Shown one piece after another: positions 5,269-27,746 of a stretch of DNA of 64,000 nt. Under the pieces are notes generated by a model. The model ran no database searches, had not been told where the DNA came from, and saw only the letters and a list, made by a program, of their open reading frames with translations. Location of the stretch: positions 45,005 through 109,004 of the forward strand of contig CAMDBP010000001.1 in assembly GCA_945889315.1 (NCBI GenBank), in the 5' to 3' direction. The position numbers and the translations under genes are program-made. The DNA is from Chitinophaga pinensis. Lineage in GTDB: Bacteria > Bacteroidota > Bacteroidia > NS11-12g > UBA9320. Positions within the stretch are counted from its first letter, which is position 1; each line of letters opens with the position of its first letter.

Positions 5269-5925
5269 GTGAATTATTTAAGTCATTATTATTTCGACCA
5301 AGACGAGGAGAATAAGTATTACAACATTGGACTAATACTGCCAGACCTTGCTAGAGCGCATATTTCAAAGCTCAGAATAAATCCATACAAGAATATCACC
5401 TTCACTACTAAGGAGATATCAAGTATGAATGATGGGACAAATAGACACTTTGCCAGTGATCGTAAATTTCATAACTGGATGACGTTTGTAGATTTAACAA
5501 ACAAAGCTACAGACATGATCAGAGAAAGTGGCGACAAAGACATTAACCGCGATTATTTTATAACTCACATAATGGTTGAAGTATTACTTGACAAAATACT
5601 CTTAGATAAAAACCCGAGTTTAGCGGACGACTTTTACAACATGATAGACAGTGTGGAACAAGATTGGGTACTTAAATTCATGCGATATGCTGGGTTACAA
5701 GATGACGAGTTATGGAAAGGGCAACATCGCCGATTTATGAAAGCTCGTTTCTTAGCCAACTATACCAGTTTAGAAAATGTGGTTGCGGCCGTTGAGGGAG
5801 TTTGCGCTAAACTAGGCATGATAGAACTTAATGACGACCAACGTCAATTACTAGTTGATATTTGTGAAACAATAGAACCTGAATTAGAACGTTCTATTGG
5901 TGCCCTCGAGATTCAACTCCTGTAA
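5269..5925 (+). CDS. Acyl carrier protein phosphodiesterase (AcpH)-like protein
   Basis: 218 aa, GTG start. N-terminus 'MNYLSHYYFD...GLILPDLARA' parallels E. coli AcpH 'MNFLAHLHLA...GNLLADFVRG'. A downstream H..H..D pattern (GTNRHFASDRKFHN) parallels 'GIHMHRRIDVLTDN'. Confidence 0.5.
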   Translation: MNYLSHYYFDQDEENKYYNIGLILPDLARAHISKLRINPYKNITFTTKEISSMNDGTNRHFASDRKFHNWMTFVDLTNKATDMIRESGDKDINRDYFITHIMVEVLLDKILLDKNPSLADDFYNMIDSVEQDWVLKFMRYAGLQDDELWKGQHRRFMKARFLANYTSLENVVAAVEGVCAKLGMIELNDDQRQLLVDICETIEPELERSIGALEIQLL

Positions 5926-5929
5926 AAAT

Positions 5930-7063
5930 ATGCTATCTCATACGAAACAAGTCCTTGCATTACTATCCGTTTTACTTTTTGCAGGTACCAATTTGTATGC
6001 ACAATCCGCTCCTAAATACAGTAACGAATTTTTATCAATAGGCTTAGGCGCTCGAGCTTTTGGTATGTCCAACTCCGTAATAGCATCTGTAGAAGATGTA
6101 ACTGCAGGATATTGGAACCCTTCGGCCCTCGTAAAGCAAGAGGATAAAATACAACTATCTTTTATGCACTCTGCTTTATTTAGCGGAATTGCCAATTATG
6201 ATTATTTAGGCATTAGTACAAAAGTTAATGAGAATGCAGCTCTCAGCTTTTCGATGATTCGATTTGGGGTAGACGGCATTCCTAATACCTTAGACCTTGT
6301 TCGAAATGGTCAGATAGACTACAATAGAGTAACAGAGTTTAGTGCCGTAGATTACGCTTTTATCGTCAGTTATGCTCAAAAAGCCATCAAAAATGGATTA
6401 AGCATTGGCGGAAGTGCGAAAATCATAAATCGTAAAGCAGGTGAATTTACGACCGCTTGGGGATTTGGAATAGACGCAAGTGCTCTTTATGAAACTCAGA
6501 ATAAATGGATTTTTGCAGCTGTGGCTCGTGACGTGACTACCACTTTTAATGCATGGAAATATAATTTCACAGACGCTGAGATTCAAACTTTTCAAAGCAC
6601 AGGAAATGAGGTTCCCATAAACTCCCTAGAATTTACCTTCCCAAAGCTACTTTTAGGAGTTTCTAAAAAAATCAACTTTAATGACGATTACACTTTCTTA
6701 ACAGAATTGAACATGGATTTAAATACCGACGGTAGACGTAATACATTGCTTCGAACCAACTTAGTTAGTGGAGACCCACATTTAGGTGTGGAAGCTGGCT
6801 ACAAAGACATCATCTTTTTACGAGGTGGACTAGGCAACGTGCAGCAGGTTAAAACCGAAGATATATTGAACACTGAGATTATAGACGGTAAGACTATTAC
6901 GAACTATAAATCTGAATGGACGTTTATGCCTAACATAGGCGTTGGGTTAAAACTCAAAAATTTAAGTATAGACTACGCACTTACTGACGTAAGTAACCAA
7001 AGCGCAGCCCTATTGTCTCACGTATTTAGTATACGTGCAGCTGTAAATGCTCCAAAAAAGTAA
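5930..7063 (+). CDS. PorV/PorQ-family (FadL-like) outer-membrane beta-barrel protein, T9SS-associated
   Basis: Signal peptide MLSHTKQVLALLSVLLFAGTNLYAQ; the track ORF starts at TTG 5897, but ATG 5930 gives the signal peptide. N-terminal 'LSIGLGARAFGMSNSVIASVEDVTAGYWNPSAL' has the NPAG/NPSA-type motif of FadL/PorV hatch regions. About 380 aa, beta-rich, C-terminal aromatic-rich strands. Confidence 0.45.
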   Translation: MLSHTKQVLALLSVLLFAGTNLYAQSAPKYSNEFLSIGLGARAFGMSNSVIASVEDVTAGYWNPSALVKQEDKIQLSFMHSALFSGIANYDYLGISTKVNENAALSFSMIRFGVDGIPNTLDLVRNGQIDYNRVTEFSAVDYAFIVSYAQKAIKNGLSIGGSAKIINRKAGEFTTAWGFGIDASALYETQNKWIFAAVARDVTTTFNAWKYNFTDAEIQTFQSTGNEVPINSLEFTFPKLLLGVSKKINFNDDYTFLTELNMDLNTDGRRNTLLRTNLVSGDPHLGVEAGYKDIIFLRGGLGNVQQVKTEDILNTEIIDGKTITNYKSEWTFMPNIGVGLKLKNLSIDYALTDVSNQSAALLSHVFSIRAAVNAPKK

Positions 7064-19625: not shown

Positions 19626-20363
19626 ATGAAAAAAACCTTTACAATTCTCTTAAGTATTATTTCAACTATGTCTATTGCGCAACTAGACTGGGCCGTTAAA
19701 AGCATAGACAAACCTGTAGATTTATACACCAATGATGACGGAACGACGGAAGTTGTTGCGCAAGTAACATTAGAAAATCTGGGTGAAACCATCCCTGCAG
19801 GCGATACGTTCACCATTGCTTTAGCCATTTTTAGAGGAGGGGATGGAGCTCTTTTAGTTGCTTCACCAAACTATACTCTTTTAAACCCAAGTGAATCTGT
19901 AAAAGGAAGCATATTAACTACAGCAGAAATTAGCTTTAAAATTAATGCAGGGATTACAGGTTCAGTTGATATGCCTATTTTTATGGGTGCATTGAGTTAT
20001 CATAGAAATAGAACTAGTCCAAAAGAAGACATCGATTCTAACAACAATTTTCTTTTGAAGGAGATGAAATGGAAATCTATTGGCAAATTATCATTGAATA
20101 CGGTTGCTTTTGAAAACAATATTTCGGCATACCCTAACCCTGCAAATGCTACCATAAACGTTGCCTTAAATTATGTACAGCAGGGAGCTACTACTATTGA
20201 ACTTATAAACTTAAATGGACAAGTAGTAGTAAGCCAAAATGCGACCGATATGTTCAATACCAGCAATTCAATGGATGTTTCAAATCTGGAGAAAGGACTT
20301 TACATCTTAACAATAACGAATGGAGATGCTACGTATACTCGAAAAGTTAGTGTTACTCACTAA
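19626..20363 (+). CDS. T9SS type-A sorting-domain protein (secreted, function unknown)
   Basis: Signal peptide. C-terminal ~80 aa 'AYPNPANATINVALNY...IELINLNGQVVVSQN...LEKGLYILTITNGDATYTRKVSV' matches the Por-secretion C-terminal domain. Confidence 0.75.
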   Translation: MKKTFTILLSIISTMSIAQLDWAVKSIDKPVDLYTNDDGTTEVVAQVTLENLGETIPAGDTFTIALAIFRGGDGALLVASPNYTLLNPSESVKGSILTTAEISFKINAGITGSVDMPIFMGALSYHRNRTSPKEDIDSNNNFLLKEMKWKSIGKLSLNTVAFENNISAYPNPANATINVALNYVQQGATTIELINLNGQVVVSQNATDMFNTSNSMDVSNLEKGLYILTITNGDATYTRKVSVTH

Positions 20364-22063: not shown

Positions 22064-22097
22064 TATCATTTGTATAATTATGATATTAATCATAGAG

Positions 22098-22141
22098 TTT
22101 GAACCTAATTTAAGTTAACTTTGAACCTAAATTAAGTTAAT
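22098..22141 (+). repeat. Tandem direct repeat, 2 x 22 bp (20/22 identical), immediately upstream of and overlapping the start of the 22140 gene; contains a TAnnTTTG-type promoter -7 box
   Basis: TTTGAACCTAATTTAAGTTAAC / TTTGAACCTAAATTAAGTTAAT. The junction reads TAACTTTG (22116-22123), matching the Bacteroidota sigma-A -7 consensus TAnnTTTG. The first copy is preceded by TAGAGTTTG. Confidence 0.55.
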
Positions 22142-22844
22142 GAAGAACATAATTTCTGCTTCAGTATTCATCCTAATTTTATTAGCAATGATTAGCTCCC
22201 AAGCGTGTAAGCATCAACCTGATGTTACTCCTAATAACAACCCAACAAGTCCTACTAACAGTGTAAGCTGCGATCCCGATAGTGTATATTTTGAAAATTC
22301 AATACTTCCTTTACTCGTATCATCTTGTGCAAAAAGCGGATGCCACGATGCCGCTACCCAAGAAGATGGTGTCATTTTGGATAATTACACGAATATTATG
22401 AAAACTGGCCGCGTTAAGGCTGGGAATCCAAGTGGCAGTGAACTATACGAAGTTATTATAGAAACACGTTCTAGTAAAGTAATGCCTCCCCCACCAGACA
22501 ACCCCTTGAGCGCCGAACAACAAGCGCTAATCAAAAAATGGATTGATCAAGGTGCTAAAAACAATAAATGTATCGAATGCGACAGCGTTAACGTTACTTT
22601 TTCAAAACAAGTAACTTCCACACTTAATGCAAATTGTGTTTCTTGTCACAATGCTTCATCAACCAGTGGAGGTGTAAGCTTACATAATTACGCAGCGGTA
22701 AAAACCAACGTAGACAATGGTAAATTAATAGGTTCAATTAACCATAGAATTGGGTTTGTAACTATGCCCCCCAGCGGAAAGTTAGATAATTGTAACCTCA
22801 CAATAATTAATAAATGGATAAATGATGGAGCACCAAATAATTAA
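22140..22844 (+). CDS. Lipoprotein with two Planctomycete-cytochrome-C-like (PSCyt1-like) modules carrying C(x)nCH motifs
   Basis: Lipobox (SSQAC). Two ~95-aa repeats. Repeat 1 'SCAKSGCH...YEVI...MPPPPDNPLSAEQQALIKKWIDQGAKNN' (CX4CH). Repeat 2 'NCVSCHNAS...GKLIGSINHRIGFVTMPPSGKLDNCNLTIINKWINDGAPNN' (CXXCH). Pattern C..CH...L..Y..v...G.L.G.v.H...MP......I..WI..GA.NN. Confidence 0.55.
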   Translation: MKNIISASVFILILLAMISSQACKHQPDVTPNNNPTSPTNSVSCDPDSVYFENSILPLLVSSCAKSGCHDAATQEDGVILDNYTNIMKTGRVKAGNPSGSELYEVIIETRSSKVMPPPPDNPLSAEQQALIKKWIDQGAKNNKCIECDSVNVTFSKQVTSTLNANCVSCHNASSTSGGVSLHNYAAVKTNVDNGKLIGSINHRIGFVTMPPSGKLDNCNLTIINKWINDGAPNN

Positions 22845-23208
22845 GGTTAAGACCTTAATCGTAGGTTTGATAGGATTGCTTTTTGTGGGTTGTTATTACG
22901 ACGTAGAAGAAGAGCTTTATCCTACCGTTAACTGCAATACTACCAACATTTCTTATGCCACAGACGTTGTTACTGTACTTACCAATAACAGCTGTATTTC
23001 ATGTCATAACAACACAAACCCACAAGGCAGTATCAAGCTAGACACCTATGCCGATGTGAAAATTAATGTAGATAATGGAAGACTTTTTGGAAGTGTAAAC
23101 CACGACGCTGGTTTTAAATCAATGCCTCAAGGAAGTACCACTAAAATAAATCAATGCTCGATAGACCAATTGCAAGCTTGGATTAAAGACGGAGCATTAA
23201 ATAATTAA
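22822..23208 (+). CDS. Lipoprotein with one PSCyt1-like CXXCH module (third copy of the repeat)
   Basis: Own signal and lipobox (LLFVGC). 'SCISCHNNTNPQGSIKLDTYADVKINVDNGRLFGSVNHDAGFKSMPQGSTTKINQCSIDQLQAWIKDGALNN'. Different frame from the upstream gene, with a 23-nt overlap. Confidence 0.55.
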   Translation: MMEHQIIKVKTLIVGLIGLLFVGCYYDVEEELYPTVNCNTTNISYATDVVTVLTNNSCISCHNNTNPQGSIKLDTYADVKINVDNGRLFGSVNHDAGFKSMPQGSTTKINQCSIDQLQAWIKDGALNN

Positions 23209-23220
23209 GCACACTAAAAT

Positions 23221-23667
23221 ATGATCAGACCAATTATAATCTTAATCGTAGCACTCGCAATAGGCGCAGCCTTCTATGGTTACAACACGTACAATAAACC
23301 TCATACAAATGTGGGTGAAAGTGAAGCAGCTGAGACATTACTCGCCAGTGAAATCTTTGTTGCATTTGACACCAACGAGCAAGCCGCAATGGCCCTCTAT
23401 TCTGACAAAGTAATTCAAGTAGAAGGAGAATTGTTAAGTAAAGACCTATCCAACGACAAAGAACCTCAGATACTCTTAAAAGGAAATGGAGATGAAGGTT
23501 TTGTGCGATGCGGATTTAAACCAACTGAATTAAGCAAAGTTCTGGCACTAACCGACAGTTCTACGGTAAAAATTAAAGGAATATGTATGGGTTGTAATGG
23601 TTCTGAAGAACTTGACCTACTCGGAAGCAAAGACGTCGTATTATCCAATTGTATCATAATCAACTAA
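23221..23667 (+). CDS. OB-fold protein of the tRNA_anti-like family (exported, N-terminal anchor)
   Basis: 148 aa, N-terminal hydrophobic segment. 'YNKPHTNV...LLASEIFVAFDTNEQAAMALYSDKVIQVEGEL...KGNGDEGFVRCGF' matches the family's conserved layout. Confidence 0.5.
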   Translation: MIRPIIILIVALAIGAAFYGYNTYNKPHTNVGESEAAETLLASEIFVAFDTNEQAAMALYSDKVIQVEGELLSKDLSNDKEPQILLKGNGDEGFVRCGFKPTELSKVLALTDSSTVKIKGICMGCNGSEELDLLGSKDVVLSNCIIIN

Positions 23668-23681
23668 TAACAAAATAACTC

Positions 23682-24245
23682 ATGAATAAAAAAATCATTC
23701 TTTTCGCTGCCATTACAACACTTGGTTTTATGGCATTTACAAACCACAGCGGTGGTGTTTACAAAACAAATACTGGAAATATCAACTTCTTTAGCCACAC
23801 CGCTGTAGAGGATATTACGGCTGATAATCATAAAGTAAAAACAGCTTTTGATGCCGAAACAGGCAAACTACAGTTTAGTGTGTTAATTAAGGATTTTGAA
23901 TTTCCTAAAGCGCTAATGCAAGAACACTTTAACGAAAATTACATGGAAAGCACTACCTATCCCAAATCAACTTTTACGGGTACTATTGATAAAATGAGTG
24001 CTGTGAATTTAGCAAAAGATGGAACATATAAATCTCCAATTACAGGCAAACTTACAATGAAAGATGTGACAAAAGACGTTAGTACGATAGCTACCTTCGT
24101 GGTTAAAGGAGGAATTGTAAATGCCAAAGCAACATTCACGGTAAACCCTACAGACTACCACATTGCAATACCAAAAACAGTGGCTGCTAAAATTTCCAAT
24201 GAAATTAAAGTAAGTGTTGACGCTGATTACACGCACGTACACTAG
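23682..24245 (+). CDS. YceI-like periplasmic (polyisoprenoid-binding) protein
   Basis: 187 aa with signal peptide. 'YKTNTGNINFFSHTAVEDITADNHKVKTAFDAETGKLQFSVLIKDFEF...STFTG' is the typical YceI lipocalin-like beta-barrel. Confidence 0.8.
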   Translation: MNKKIILFAAITTLGFMAFTNHSGGVYKTNTGNINFFSHTAVEDITADNHKVKTAFDAETGKLQFSVLIKDFEFPKALMQEHFNENYMESTTYPKSTFTGTIDKMSAVNLAKDGTYKSPITGKLTMKDVTKDVSTIATFVVKGGIVNAKATFTVNPTDYHIAIPKTVAAKISNEIKVSVDADYTHVH

Positions 24246-24255
24246 CCCAAGAACA

Positions 24256-24292
24256 TAAAAAAACCTTTTGAAATAGTTCAAAAGGTTTTTTC
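24256..24292 (+). terminator. Rho-independent terminator closing the 22140-24245 operon
   Basis: AAAAAAACCTTTTGAA-atag-TTCAAAAGGTTTTTTC: 13-bp stem plus T-tract. Confidence 0.8.
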
Positions 24293-24322
24293 AATTAACA
24301 CGTCTAATAATCAATCTCATAA

Positions 24323-25186
24323 ATGAAAAAAAGCCTTTTCTTTTTTATCCTTTTAGCAACTACTAAGTTATGCCTAGCTCAAGACGTTGATTTGTTAGAT
24401 GAGCCAGAATTAGAAACTACAGATTATGCTACCGCCACATTTAAAACCAATAGAGTGGTAAATGGGCACAGCATCGAAACCGTAGCTAAAAATGAATTCG
24501 ATTTTAAAATCTCTCATCGATTCGGATTTTTAAGCGGGGGACCATATGATATGTTTGGACTTGATCAAGCCACTATGCGTATAGGCGGAGACTATGGAAT
24601 AACGGATAACTTAAACGTAGGACTAGGTAGAAGTACAGTAGACAAAACCTATGATGGATTCATAAAATACAAATTCCTGAAACAAAGCACTGGACTAAAA
24701 ACAATGCCCTTAACCGCCACTTGGATAAGTCATATGGGCATAACCACTTTAAAATGGCCGCAACCAAATCGTGAAAATTACTTTTCTAGTAGATTACATT
24801 ACACGCACCAACTATTAATTGCGCGAAAATTTACGGAAGGATTAAGTATTCAATTAAGCCCTACATTGGTGCATAAAAATATTGTCGATTCCACTAAATT
24901 TAAGAATGACATCTTATCGCTAGGAGTGGGTGTTAGACAGAAGCTTACCAAACGTACTACACTAAACGTGGAGTATTATTATGTACTGCCTAATCAATTG
25001 GAAGAAGATAAAACAAATGTGCTATCAGTAGGTTTTGACATAGAAACAGGGGGGCACGTTTTTCAACTATTTTTCACCAACTCAAGCGGACCCTTTGAAA
25101 AAGCATTTATTACAGATACAAAAGCAAAATGGCTTGATGGGAACATACGATTCGGATTTAATATTGCCAGAGTTTTTGATTTTTAG
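24323..25186 (+). CDS. DUF5777-like outer-membrane beta-barrel protein
   Basis: Signal peptide. 'FKTNRVVNGHSIETVAKNEFDFKISHRFG' N-terminal motif. Alternating amphipathic strands. Ends in aromatic residues (RVFDF). Confidence 0.45.
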   Translation: MKKSLFFFILLATTKLCLAQDVDLLDEPELETTDYATATFKTNRVVNGHSIETVAKNEFDFKISHRFGFLSGGPYDMFGLDQATMRIGGDYGITDNLNVGLGRSTVDKTYDGFIKYKFLKQSTGLKTMPLTATWISHMGITTLKWPQPNRENYFSSRLHYTHQLLIARKFTEGLSIQLSPTLVHKNIVDSTKFKNDILSLGVGVRQKLTKRTTLNVEYYYVLPNQLEEDKTNVLSVGFDIETGGHVFQLFFTNSSGPFEKAFITDTKAKWLDGNIRFGFNIARVFDF

Positions 25187-25241
25187 TATGTTTGATAGAA
25201 TATTTCCGACTGTTTTAACAGGACCCTAACTTAAAGAACGT

Positions 25242-27746
25242 ATTAAAAAGCTACTAATCATAACACTTACCTTGCTGTCAACTGTAGTCGTTGAAGCTAC
25301 CCACATTGTAGGAGGTGAGATATATTATCAGTTATTAAATGCAAACACTAATTCTTACAGAGTAACCGTCAATGTGTATTTTGATTGCTATAATGGCGAT
25401 CCAGACGCTATAGATTCTGATAAAACTATTTTCATTAGTACTTGGGACGCCAAAACCAATAACTTTATTTCCGATTTTACCTTAACAGGATCTGCCCCTA
25501 ATCGACTTAAAAGTACAAACTACGAATGCGTGAAACAGCCAAGTGGCATCTGTACAGACGCTTATGTATACACAGCTATTCGAACTATAAATCCAGGGAG
25601 CAATGGTGTAATTCTGGCATGGCAACGTTGCTGCAGAAATAACACCATAGACAATATTGTTAGTCCAGAAGCATCTGGTTTTACCGCATGGACTATCATA
25701 CCGCCAAAAGCTACAGCCAATTCAAGTGCATATTTTACAACAGTACCTCCGGTCTATATTTGCGTAGACGCTCCACTTACGCTTCAGCAACCGGCTACAG
25801 ATCCAAATGGGGACTCCTTAGTATATCTTCTAACAACTCCATATTTAGGTGCCAATCAAAATAGCCCAAGACCTAGTGCCGCAGGAGCATATGACAAACC
25901 CCCTTTCGCTGAATTAAATTGGAGCTCTAGTTATTCTAAATTTCTACAAATGAAGGGGAGCCCTTCTCTCAACATGAATTCATCAACGGGAGAAATAACC
26001 ATTACGCCTTCTGAAATAGGGCAATTCGTTGTTGGATTCACGGTTCAAGAATATAGAAATGGGAAACTTATTGGGGAAACCCGCCGCGACTACCAGTTTA
26101 ATGTAATACAATGTGAATTTGACATTCTTGCTAATTTTGATATACCTAACGGCACAACAGTAGGTGGAGCATACACCTTTGAATGCGGGGATACTGTTTG
26201 CATTCGAAATAAAAGTTATACTAAATTCCCCGCTAAAACTAAGTACTTTTGGGACTTTGGTGATCCTACAACTACACGTGATACGCTTACTACGTTTAGC
26301 TTAGCCGGCAATTTATGCTATACCTACCCCGGAAATGGAAATTACACCATAAGTTTAAAAGCCACTACGTCTATTTGTGAATCCAATTACAAATATGACG
26401 TGCGAATACGTTCTACCAAATCATTTGACTTAGGTCCTGACCTTATTTTTTGTGACGACTTTTCAATTCGATTAGACACTAAAACTGCAGACGCAGTCTC
26501 TGTAAAGTGGAATACCGGCCAAAGTGGATACCGTATAAATGTAAGTGATACCGGAAAATATGTTGCTACTGTTTCGTATGGAAATTGCAGTTACCTGGAT
26601 TCTGTTCACTTACGCTATAATAAAGTTCCTCCCCTTTCTATAACCAGAGATACACTTTTATGTGATACCGTAAATGTGCTTCTAGATGTAGGTGTGCCAG
26701 GACTTTTTTACCAATGGAGCACTAGCCCTCTAGACAACAAGCAAACTTTAAATGTGCGAGATACCGGAGAATATTCGGTTATCGTAAGAAACATAAACTG
26801 TTTTTCGTACGATACCGTTAGAATTTGGACCGCGACTGAACCAAAAATCGATGACCAGTTTTATTGCAATGAATTTACGTACGAAGCGGACGCTACCGCC
26901 ATAGAAGAAGCAGAATATAAATGGTCTACAGGAGAAACTACCCAAAAGGTTACGCTTACTCGAGCTGACAATTATTGGGTTGAAGTAAAACAAAGGCATT
27001 GTGTTAAAACAGATTCCTTTAGCATAACCAATCCCATAATTAATCTTGAGTTAGGCGTGGACAAACATTTCTGTGATAACATAAATGCAGAGCTGGATGC
27101 AGGACCTGACGGAATAACATACGACTGGAACACAGGAGCTACTACTCAAAAAATAAAAGTGAACCAGCCTGATACATTCAAAGTAACGGTGTATGATGAA
27201 TATGGATGTGAAGCCACAGATTCTGTGATTATATCTGTATCTCAATCACCAGAAGTTGACTTAGGTGACGACCTTACCATTTGCGTAAATAGCCCAACCA
27301 AAATTGAAGGACCCGCAGGATATGCGTATCAATGGAATACCGGATCTAAAGACCAGAGCATTTCCACTATTGACCAAGGCAAGTACTCACTCAAAATAAT
27401 AGATCAATTTGGCTGTATGGCTACAGATAGCTTGTATATCACGGTAGATCCTGAAGCGCTACCCAACGAACTTAATGTGCCTAGCGCCTTTAGTCCCAAT
27501 GACGACGGGCTTAATGAATTATTCCCGTTTACCCTACCAGTCTCTCAACCTTCTTATTACATTACTGTATTTTCTAGATGGGGAGAAAAAGTGTTTGATT
27601 CACGAGACGATAGTACTAAACCCAATTGGGACGGTTATTACCAAGGAGAAAGAGTGCCAAATCAATTGTACATCTATTTCATGTACTACCGAGGCTGTGA
27701 CGGCAATGCTCGCACCGCAAAAGGCAACGTATATCCGCTACGTTAA
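25242..27746 (+). CDS. T9SS type-B sorting-domain ('gliding motility-associated C-terminal domain', CHU_C-like) surface protein with five internal ~68-aa tandem repeats; start codon uncertain (ATT/ATA/TTG)
   Basis: C-terminus 'VPSAFSPNDDGLNELFPF...ITVFSRWGEKVFDS...WDGYYQGERVPNQLYIYFMYY...GNVYPLR' matches the type-B CTD. Five degenerate repeats (about 26424-27445) with pattern LG.D...C...L.....Y.W.TG..Q.I.V...G.Y.V.V....C...DS..I. The track ORF starts at TTG 25272, but the in-frame codons upstream (after stop 25227-25229) read 'ATT AAA AAG CTA CTA ATC ATA ACA CTT ACC TTG...' = (M)KKLLIITLTLLSTVVVEA, a textbook signal peptide. Confidence 0.7.
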   Translation: MKKLLIITLTLLSTVVVEATHIVGGEIYYQLLNANTNSYRVTVNVYFDCYNGDPDAIDSDKTIFISTWDAKTNNFISDFTLTGSAPNRLKSTNYECVKQPSGICTDAYVYTAIRTINPGSNGVILAWQRCCRNNTIDNIVSPEASGFTAWTIIPPKATANSSAYFTTVPPVYICVDAPLTLQQPATDPNGDSLVYLLTTPYLGANQNSPRPSAAGAYDKPPFAELNWSSSYSKFLQMKGSPSLNMNSSTGEITITPSEIGQFVVGFTVQEYRNGKLIGETRRDYQFNVIQCEFDILANFDIPNGTTVGGAYTFECGDTVCIRNKSYTKFPAKTKYFWDFGDPTTTRDTLTTFSLAGNLCYTYPGNGNYTISLKATTSICESNYKYDVRIRSTKSFDLGPDLIFCDDFSIRLDTKTADAVSVKWNTGQSGYRINVSDTGKYVATVSYGNCSYLDSVHLRYNKVPPLSITRDTLLCDTVNVLLDVGVPGLFYQWSTSPLDNKQTLNVRDTGEYSVIVRNINCFSYDTVRIWTATEPKIDDQFYCNEFTYEADATAIEEAEYKWSTGETTQKVTLTRADNYWVEVKQRHCVKTDSFSITNPIINLELGVDKHFCDNINAELDAGPDGITYDWNTGATTQKIKVNQPDTFKVTVYDEYGCEATDSVIISVSQSPEVDLGDDLTICVNSPTKIEGPAGYAYQWNTGSKDQSISTIDQGKYSLKIIDQFGCMATDSLYITVDPEALPNELNVPSAFSPNDDGLNELFPFTLPVSQPSYYITVFSRWGEKVFDSRDDSTKPNWDGYYQGERVPNQLYIYFMYYRGCDGNARTAKGNVYPLR

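Follow-up and report, generated by a model that had tools for sequence, protein, structure and literature searches.

A five-gene cluster of Bacteroidota linking predicted haem-c lipoproteins, a YceI lipocalin, an OB-fold protein and a DUF5777 outer-membrane barrel

How far does a tightly packed set of envelope-protein genes from Chitinophaga pinensis extend, and what could its products do together? The locus lies in a stretch of 64,000 nucleotides (nt) of contig CAMDBP010000001.1, hereafter the window, and positions are counted from its first letter. An initial annotation had read it as a four-gene operon, closed by a terminator, that encodes two haem-c lipoproteins (p1 and p2), an OB-fold protein (p3) and a YceI-like protein (p4). 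The four open reading frames (ORFs) lie on the + strand at exactly the coordinates given there, but that reading took an internal hairpin for the operon end and overlooked a key fifth component, the DUF5777 barrel gene (p5). All five families are genetically linked across many Bacteroidota genomes; judged from sequence, the operon consists of five genes (22140–25186), which we tentatively interpret as an envelope redox module. Its features are as follows.

22098–22141, + strand: tandem direct repeat of 22 nt (TTTGAACCTAATTTAAGTTAAC twice), running into the p1 start codon
22140–22844, + strand: p1, predicted haem-c lipoprotein of 234 aa with two modules (ORF, Pfam, homologues, AlphaFold2)
22822–23208, + strand: p2, predicted haem-c lipoprotein of 128 aa with one module (ORF, homologues)
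23221–23667, + strand: p3, tRNA_anti-like OB-fold protein of 148 aa with an N-terminal hydrophobic anchor (Pfam)
23682–24245, + strand: p4, exported YceI-family lipocalin of 187 aa (Pfam, profile search)
24258–24291, + strand: AT-rich 15-bp hairpin with A and T runs at its flanks, between p4 and p5 (folding)
24323–25186, + strand: p5, DUF5777 outer-membrane protein of 287 aa (Pfam, AlphaFold2, Foldseek, synteny)

Extent of the operon and its recurrence

The linkage was assessed in a metagenome scan anchored on DUF5777 alone, in which ORFs were labelled with iterative hidden Markov models (HMMs) and 34 loci had enough flanking DNA. A cytochrome gene is adjacent to the barrel gene in 32 of these loci, a YceI gene in 30 and an OB gene in 26; all three are present in 24, and no locus lacks all of them. 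The clusters occur in at least four gene orders, with unrelated flanks. The order cyt2-cyt1-OB-YceI-DUF5777 is found in loci L011, L015, L016 and L017/18, which were reached through p1 homologues and come from unrelated genomes with unrelated flanks, and the variants include cyt2-OB-YceI-DUF5777 (L014), cyt2-cyt1-DUF5777 (L004) and cyt-cyt1-DUF5777-YceI-OB (L006). Two loci in which public gene calls show the barrel gene alone (L019/L020) carry, directly 5′ of it, an ORF for a 130-aa CXXCH lipoprotein (5604–5996 of the locus) that those calls miss; the smallest core that recurs therefore consists of one cytochrome module and the barrel. By sequence comparison, the barrel is the most conserved member of the unit.

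Within the window, p1 and p2 overlap by 23 nt, and gaps of 12 and 14 nt separate p2 from p3 and p3 from p4. In relatives, the junction between the YceI and barrel genes is short, with a median of 19 nt over 59 junctions, most of which span 0–30 nt or overlap. Because both this short junction and the linkage to cytochrome, YceI and OB genes recur, we assign p5 to the unit. The hairpin that precedes p5 is real (–15.1 kcal/mol, z=-4.9, with none of 200 shuffled sequences equally stable), but the earlier description of a terminator-bounded set was not confirmed: no terminator-like site was found upstream of p1, and the unit continues beyond the hairpin into the barrel gene. The stem and its T-run are present, yet their position is internal to a conserved gene set: since the conserved barrel gene (24323–25186) comes after it, the hairpin does not mark the operon end. 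It is conserved only in the lineage of the window; other lineages have unrelated hairpins, in a few cases, or no gap at the junction, and most relatives have no hairpin there. The element is probably an internal partial terminator or an RNA-stability element.

We note that six loci (L028, L034, L043, L045, L046 and L054) carry long palindromes (–32 to –65 kcal/mol) at the same YceI-to-DUF5777 position, which are GC-rich or made of short repeats, in place of the AT-rich hairpin of the window. Their recurrence suggests either that an RNA structure has repeatedly been selected for at this junction or that the site is a hot spot for insertions.

At the other end of the operon, the two copies of the 22-nt repeat (22098–22141) are 91% identical, and the last copy ends in the p1 start codon. 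The junction of the copies creates a perfect TAACTTTG box (–7-like, TAnnTTTG) at 22116–22123, 17 nt 5′ of p1, which is the sole + strand box upstream of p1. Near the cluster the only other + strand box is directly past the p5 stop codon, and none is found between the hairpin and p5. The region 22098–22141 is probably the promoter of the operon, although promoter assignments of this kind are weak because TAnnTTTG is not enriched across the window (89 observed versus 82 expected). The 22-nt duplication was not found in the closest relatives, of which L002 has one copy and L001, L008 and L022 have diverged; from this comparison, it is unique to the genome of the window.

Cytochrome modules, carrier proteins and barrel

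As the initial annotation held, a module of ~95 aa is repeated three times over the two overlapping lipoprotein genes. The modules are homologous by blastp, with 42% identity between B and C (E=4e-27), 31% between A and B (E=1e-10) and E=3e-5 between A and C. One CX4CH and two CXXCH haem motifs had been described, and all are present, each followed ~40–46 residues later by a Met-Pro pair.

22326–22346, + strand: module A of p1, CAKSGCH (CX4CH, aa 63–69), with Met115-Pro116
22635–22649, + strand: module B of p1, CVSCH (CXXCH, aa 166–170), with Met209-Pro210
22993–23007, + strand: module C of p2, CISCH (CXXCH, aa 58–62), with Met101-Pro102

The modules had also been likened to the planctomycete cytochrome domain PSCyt1 (PF07635), a likeness borne out in part. 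Above the gathering threshold of 22 bits are p1 as a whole (60.1 bits) and modules A (34.7) and B (29.6), whereas module C falls just under it (20.4/19.5 bits). Among 38 p2-type homologues, 12 match PSCyt1 (E<=0.01) and 22 match Cytochrome_CBB3; hhalign identifies module B as a homologue of the p2 family (E=3e-45), a family placed between the PSCyt1 and Cytochrome_CBB3 profiles. The PSCyt2 and PSD1 domains (DUF1549/DUF1553) were found neither in p1 and p2 nor in homologous proteins. Small lipoproteins such as these, which had been thought unusual, form at least 740 homologous clusters at 90% identity, nearly all of 230–350 aa and from Bacteroidota, and some sources already name family members 'c-type cytochrome domain-containing protein'.

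Several features point to a class-I cytochrome c fold. In the p1 family the invariant positions comprise the lipobox Cys, both haem motifs, both Met-Pro pairs, the Trp-Ile..Gly-Ala that closes each module, and four extra cysteines (44, 144, 147 and 218). With Cys38 and Cys112 of p2, these probably form one disulfide per module (44–144 and 147–218 in p1, 38–112 in p2). A redox-active CXXC formed by Cys144 and Cys147 was considered and rejected, as the spacing varies, the family consensus is CX3C and the pattern of one disulfide per module fits. Met-Pro lies 25–65 aa downstream of 179 of the 184 haem motifs of the family in all loci, and the order CX4CH then CXXCH holds in 65 of 65 two-module homologues; longer forms carry three motifs per chain, and a cluster carries between one and five haem motifs, with a mode of three. 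The best solved relative of the p1 family profile is the dihaem cytochrome FoxE (E=1.2e-5), with an alignment that spans CXXCH and Met-Pro, and profiles of the module B and C types align end to end with cytochrome c6 (E=3e-3 and 9e-5). The AlphaFold2 model of p1 (predicted local distance difference test, pLDDT, of 87) has a disordered tether of ~20 aa past the lipid-bearing Cys, followed by two helical modules with helices before each haem motif and at each module's C-terminus. Motif, distal Met and flanking helices, the sequence marks of class-I c-type cytochromes, are thus all found in the modules, and cytochrome surveys accept CX2-4CH motifs as sites of haem-c attachment (PMC10734462, PMC11492766). 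The modules of p1 and p2 are accordingly classed as predicted haem-binding, class-I (His/Met-type) cytochromes c. Within the 64-kb window we found neither a CcsBA maturation system nor further CXXCH ORFs.

The lipoprotein assignment is consistent with the sequences. A signal peptide and lipobox Cys23 (22206–22208) are present in p1 and lipobox Cys24 (22891–22893) in p2; both cysteines are invariant at the end of hydrophobic N-termini, with mostly Ser, Ala or Gly at position –1, and by these marks p1 and p2 are lipoproteins. The p2 family continues with an acidic tail, C-Y-Y-D-x-E-E-E, and 91% of members have at least two acidic residues in positions +2 to +7. Surface-export signals of Bacteroidota are acidic at about +3 to +6, with the published forms C-X-K-(D/E)2, SDDDD and SDDFE (PMC5080379); the p2 tail resembles these signals and is identical to no published one. 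In the p1 family the sequence that starts with the lipidated Cys is C-K/T-H-E/D-P, with a near-invariant His at +3 (22212–22214 in the window) in 39 of 40 sequences of two- and three-module cytochromes.

Could p1 and p2 be a broken three-module gene, or the products of a programmed frameshift? We rejected this reading because p2 is equipped with a signal peptide and an invariant lipobox of its own and because an overlap of ~20 nt recurs in relatives; it is also opposed by single-chain three-module homologues, in which the motifs are ordered differently (CXXCH-CX4CH-CXXCH or CX4CH-CX4CH-CXXCH). A 462-aa ORF at the head of the cyt-cyt1-DUF5777-YceI-OB cluster (L006, 5218–6606) carries five haem motifs (CX4CH, CXXCH, CXXCH, CX4CH and CXXCH), and by its sequence it shows modular expansion of the cytochrome family.

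The assignments of p3 and p4 made earlier were upheld by Pfam, with 49.7 bits for tRNA_anti-like (PF12869; cutoff 23.5) and 58.9 bits for YceI (PF04264; cutoff 23.7). The p3 family is poorly conserved and keeps only Gly69, Gly120/124 and three cysteines; its profile has a marginal match to 3f1z, a 'putative nucleic acid-binding lipoprotein' (E=0.029), and single-sequence PDB searches with p3, as with p5, gave no match. A role for the OB protein as a CcmE-like haem chaperone of the CX4CH site was rejected, since it has no conserved His or Tyr and its CxxC is not conserved; the OB gene is, moreover, present in clusters with CXXCH modules only. The profile of the cluster YceI family matches the solved YceI structures 5ixg (E=7e-5), 1y0g (E=2e-3) and 3hpe (E=7e-3), and on these profile matches the p4 family is bona fide YceI. 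Proteins of the YceI family bind polyisoprenoids (PMC8981238). Literature searches on tRNA_anti-like and on YceI with Flavobacterium returned matches that, judged by title and abstract, seemed unrelated.

The fifth protein, p5, scores 322 bits against DUF5777 (PF19089) and has a signal peptide, a conserved N-terminal segment (aa 38–53) and a C-terminal Phe. Its AlphaFold2 model (pLDDT 80, predicted template-modelling score 0.73) has 12 strands, with the conserved N-terminal segment at low confidence. Foldseek with this model finds FapF, OmpG and NanC (E ~1e-6, probability 1.0, TM ~0.5), which are generic 12–14-stranded outer-membrane barrels. About 66 columns are invariant in a DUF5777 alignment of 59–95% identity, and by strand-parity analysis the lumen face carries the invariant Asp, Glu, Lys, Arg and Gly residues and the lipid face hydrophobic ones. 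As modelled, this pattern points to a channel that is specific or plugged, not to a generic pore, and it speaks against a conduit for lipids. The family is large: its members fall into at least 7,843 clusters at 90% identity and, at the 50% level, have 2,331 representatives. Our literature search found no paper describing DUF5777 or the five-gene cluster.

Among the long members of the DUF5777 family, one representative (P0277, which is L102 959–2329) has 456 aa and combines a signal peptide, a CXXCH motif (NCTECH), a Reeler domain (PF02014) and the DUF5777 barrel, and is predicted to be a natural haem–barrel fusion. The CXXCH–Reeler fusion at the barrel N-terminus is seen in two independent assemblies (L102 and L103) with cyt genes directly upstream; it is rare, occurring in 1 of 150 listed family representatives, and none of the 95 barrel ORFs in the loci is fused. 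Eukaryotic Reeler domains accompany DOMON–cytochrome b561 ferric reductases. Four further representatives (P0245, P0246, P0271 and P0280) have long Lys/Ala/Glu-rich low-complexity extensions at either end, and P0271 has an extra C-terminal domain of ~200 aa that has no match in Pfam.

An electron relay, its precedents and its rivals

We propose, as a reading that we would rate a little below an even chance, that the five genes encode a compact envelope redox module, widespread in Bacteroidota, in which electrons pass between YceI-bound quinone and haem-c lipoproteins at the barrel. The proposal follows from the precedents for YceI–cytochrome pairs, the linkage data and the barrel fusion. The haem-c lipoproteins would be held on flexible tethers at the outer membrane, where they might dock on or beside the DUF5777 barrel; the cargo that YceI takes through the periplasm would be an isoprenoid quinone, its quinol or a related lipid; and, on the inner-membrane side, the OB protein could serve as an adaptor or anchor. 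One-electron transfers between YceI-bound quinone and the c haems would then link the respiratory quinone pool to a partner, located at the outer membrane or outside it, that accepts or donates electrons. As terminal partner we would prefer oxidised outer-membrane lipids or reactive oxygen species, in an antioxidant role like that proposed for BcnA-LcoA; next, a secreted redox enzyme, as for Cbp2D; and last, Fe(II)/Fe(III), as for FoxE. An envelope redox or quinone-handling module had been suggested from the outset, and our results, like two YceI–cytochrome precedents (PMC9113575; PMC8981238), are consistent with it, the function itself being inferred.

One of these precedents is the Cellvibrio japonicus pair Cbp2D/Cbp2E, which comprises a carbohydrate-binding module (CBM2), the YceI-like X158 domain, FN3 and the c-type cytochrome domains X183/X132. 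Both systems join a YceI-type quinone- or polyisoprenoid-binding domain to small class-I, His/Met, disulfide-stabilised c-type cytochromes outside the cytoplasm (PMC8981238; PMC12542752). Cbp2D, which is secreted, fuses the quinone-binding YceI-like domain to two class-I c-type cytochrome domains, and X183 is a pure electron-transfer domain (+193 mV) that reduces a lytic polysaccharide monooxygenase (PMC8981238, PMC12542752). In Cbp2D/Cbp2E, however, the domains are fused in a large, secreted, cellulose-binding gammaproteobacterial protein, whereas the cluster has separate genes, no CBM, lipoprotein cytochromes, and an outer-membrane barrel and OB protein in addition; PDB profile searches revealed no specific sequence similarity to X183. 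In the other precedent, BcnA-LcoA of Burkholderia (E. coli counterpart yceI-yceJ), a YceI-family lipocalin is genetically coupled to a cytochrome, as in the cluster, and acts in the detoxification of lipid peroxyl radicals (PMC9113575). LcoA is proposed to recycle the BcnA-bound quinone that quenches these radicals, and natural lipocalin–b561 fusions are known (PMC9113575). The partner there is an integral inner-membrane dihaem b561, in contrast to the c-type lipoproteins and outer-membrane barrel found here, and no b561 gene is present in or beside the cluster.

For the cytochromes themselves, the closest solved relative is FoxE of Rhodobacter ferrooxidans SW2 (PDB 5MAB), a dihaem c-type cytochrome and putative periplasmic Fe(II) oxidase of the foxEYZ operon. 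FoxE and p1 share the signature G-D/N-P-x-x-S ... M-P-P ... W-I-x-x-G-A and two haem modules per chain of ~250 aa, as well as His/Met ligation and a stabilising disulfide, which in p1 are predicted (PMC10654088). FoxE is, however, a soluble proteobacterial protein with two CXXCH motifs that is encoded with the pyrroloquinoline-quinone protein FoxY and the inner-membrane transporter FoxZ, whereas p1 and p2 are lipoproteins with CX4CH in module A, a third module on the second lipoprotein, and YceI, OB and DUF5777 partners. The homology to p1 is weak, Foldseek did not recover FoxE, and FoxY- or FoxZ-type neighbours are found in none of the loci. The planctomycete and verrucomicrobial PSCyt1-PSCyt2(DUF1549)-PSD1(DUF1553) giants share with modules A and B a score above the PSCyt1 threshold; p1 and p2 differ from them as small lipoproteins that have neither PSCyt2 nor PSD1, carry CX4CH in module A, and belong to another phylum and gene context.

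The co-inheritance of an outer-membrane β-barrel gene with c-type cytochrome genes is shared with the porin–cytochrome systems MtrCAB, PioAB/MtoAB and Cyc2. One lipoprotein cytochrome of the cluster has an acidic N-terminus that resembles surface-export signals, and the CXXCH domain at the barrel N-terminus of one DUF5777 lineage recalls Cyc2 (PMC10734462). It is unlike Mtr and Cyc2 in its 12 predicted strands, in its 1–5 haem motifs versus 10–20 haems, in the absence of a detectable sequence relationship and in the additional YceI and OB proteins. MtrB has ~26 strands and Cyc2 ~16. The wide barrel and the spanning multihaem chain or fusion typical of porin–cytochrome and Cyc2 systems are not what we find in the cluster.

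A stronger version of the relay, which we consider rather unlikely, is that the cluster represents a third architecture for moving electrons to the outer membrane, apart from the multihaem wires (Mtr/Pio) and the fused Cyc2. YceI would take quinol through the periplasm to between one and five monohaem c modules, tethered at a small and specialised barrel of 12 strands; the route to the cell surface would be completed by the invariant charged or His-lined interior of the barrel or by its plug.

Several observations weigh against the relay. A 12-stranded barrel is too narrow to house a cytochrome domain, unlike MtrB, and this leaves the route of electrons across the membrane unexplained; nor does the cluster encode an inner-membrane redox protein. 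YceI is missing from 4 of the 34 clusters and OB from 8. In Bacteroidales metagenome-assembled genomes, 327-aa three-module homologues (CXXCH-CX4CH-CXXCH; L012/L013, P0017) lack all of the partners (barrel, YceI and OB). Only one lineage supplies the Reeler fusion, and Foldseek of the cytochrome model against the PDB gave no significant match.

How, then, do the other explanations compare? The cluster could be a miniature porin–cytochrome system in which the barrel is a channel for Fe(II) or another charged species, the haem-c lipoproteins oxidise or reduce the solute at its periplasmic mouth, and YceI and OB are accessory. In its favour, no link is better conserved than that between cytochrome and barrel (32/34), and these two form the minimal core (L004, L019). 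The lumen of the barrel carries invariant charged residues, profile searches place FoxE nearest to the cytochromes among solved proteins, and in L102 the barrel has a fused CXXCH domain. Nevertheless, we judge this explanation unlikely: genes for the transport or regulation of iron or other metals do not recur next to the cluster, the block upstream of p1 is not a canonical Fur box, the presence of YceI in 88% of clusters is left unexplained, and the tie to FoxE suffers from its weak homology and the missing foxY/foxZ partners. Trans-envelope trafficking of lipids or pigments such as menaquinone or carotenoids, with OB as anchor, YceI as carrier, the barrel as receiver and the cytochromes only modifying or sensing the cargo, seems to us improbable. 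Its three-tier layout (inner-membrane anchor, carrier and outer-membrane receiver) resembles Lpt, Mla and Lol, which counts in its favour. The polyisoprenoid binding of YceI proteins does so too (PMC8981238), but the lumen of the barrel is polar and charged rather than hydrophobic, the cytochromes are the most constant partners of the barrel, clusters of cytochrome and barrel only exist, and no ATPase or other energy source is encoded.

Two further explanations were weighed. The four-gene, terminator-closed, periplasmic operon (22140–24245) of the initial annotation, without the downstream gene, fits the tight packing of the upstream genes and the stable hairpin and T-runs 3′ of yceI; we hold it to be highly improbable, given that DUF5777 comes next on the same strand both in the window and in relatives, often across 0–30 nt or with an overlap, that it is linked to cytochromes in 32 of 34 independently anchored loci, and that no –7-like box separates hairpin and barrel gene. 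Least probable of all, in our view, is that p1 and p2 are ordinary respiratory carriers, for example from alternative complex III to a terminal oxidase, whose nearness to YceI, OB and DUF5777 is meaningless. In Bacteroidota the usual carriers are class-I cytochromes c tethered to the membrane, and the modules also match Cytochrome_CBB3-type profiles; against this, the linkage is retained in several gene orders and between unrelated flanks, and none of the loci has oxidase or complex III genes next to the cluster.

Flanks, possible regulation and significance

In the window the cluster is flanked by genes for a carboxyl transferase, cargo proteins of the type IX secretion system and a NUDIX protein. 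Upstream is a Por_Secre_tail protein of 245 aa (19626–20363), and 3′ of the barrel gene is a PKD/CHU_C protein of 824 aa (25272–27746) that has a type IX secretion C-terminal domain and its own TATGTTTG box at 25187. Large CHU_C proteins are found 3′ of the cluster in 8 loci, which may reflect lineage synteny only. The cytochrome genes that occur without the barrel (L012/L013) adjoin a gene for a helix-turn-helix regulator.

An AT-rich block, TCATTTGTATAATTATGATATTAATCATA (22066–22094), begins directly past the stop codon of the gene upstream of p1 and is kept among close relatives, with indels in the adjacent DNA. The block contains ATGAT-N4-ATCAT and is a possible operator. Control by Fur through 22066–22094 was dropped, as ATGAT-N4-ATCAT is not a canonical Fur box.

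In a sub-lineage (L027, L028, L029, L037, L047, L049 and L050), a LytTR response regulator and a Reg_prop/Y_Y_Y/His_kinase sensor are encoded upstream of the cluster. Most of these LytTR-flanked loci (e.g. L047, L028, L037, L029 and L050) have direct repeats of TTCCCGTTCAG 5′ of the first gene, 21 nt apart where paired, and the motif is ~6-fold above background. The repeats and the LytTR two-component genes are confined to this sub-lineage and are not evident in the window; their co-occurrence suggests that the operon is inducible in the organisms that have both.

Bacteroidota are dominant degraders in oceans, soils, lakes and wastewater, and to our knowledge nothing has been reported on redox chemistry at their outer membrane. 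The cluster is a discrete, widespread and testable gene set that links predicted c-type haems, a quinone or lipid carrier and an orphan outer-membrane barrel, and it offers a first functional context for DUF5777 and for the Bacteroidota branch of PF12869. It would extend the YceI–cytochrome partnership, known from BcnA-LcoA and Cbp2D, to c-type lipoproteins, and it provides a natural series of predicted 1-, 3-, 4- and 5-haem variants, together with one barrel fusion, for experiments. Should the relay serve to protect the lipids of the outer membrane or to feed redox enzymes outside the cell, it would matter for envelope stress and for the turnover of polysaccharides or metals by the phylum. 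If, further, the cluster were a third architecture for outer-membrane electron transfer, most aerobic Bacteroidota would possess a previously unrecognised outer-membrane redox activity, which may serve antioxidant protection, the activation of extracellular enzymes or metal redox chemistry.

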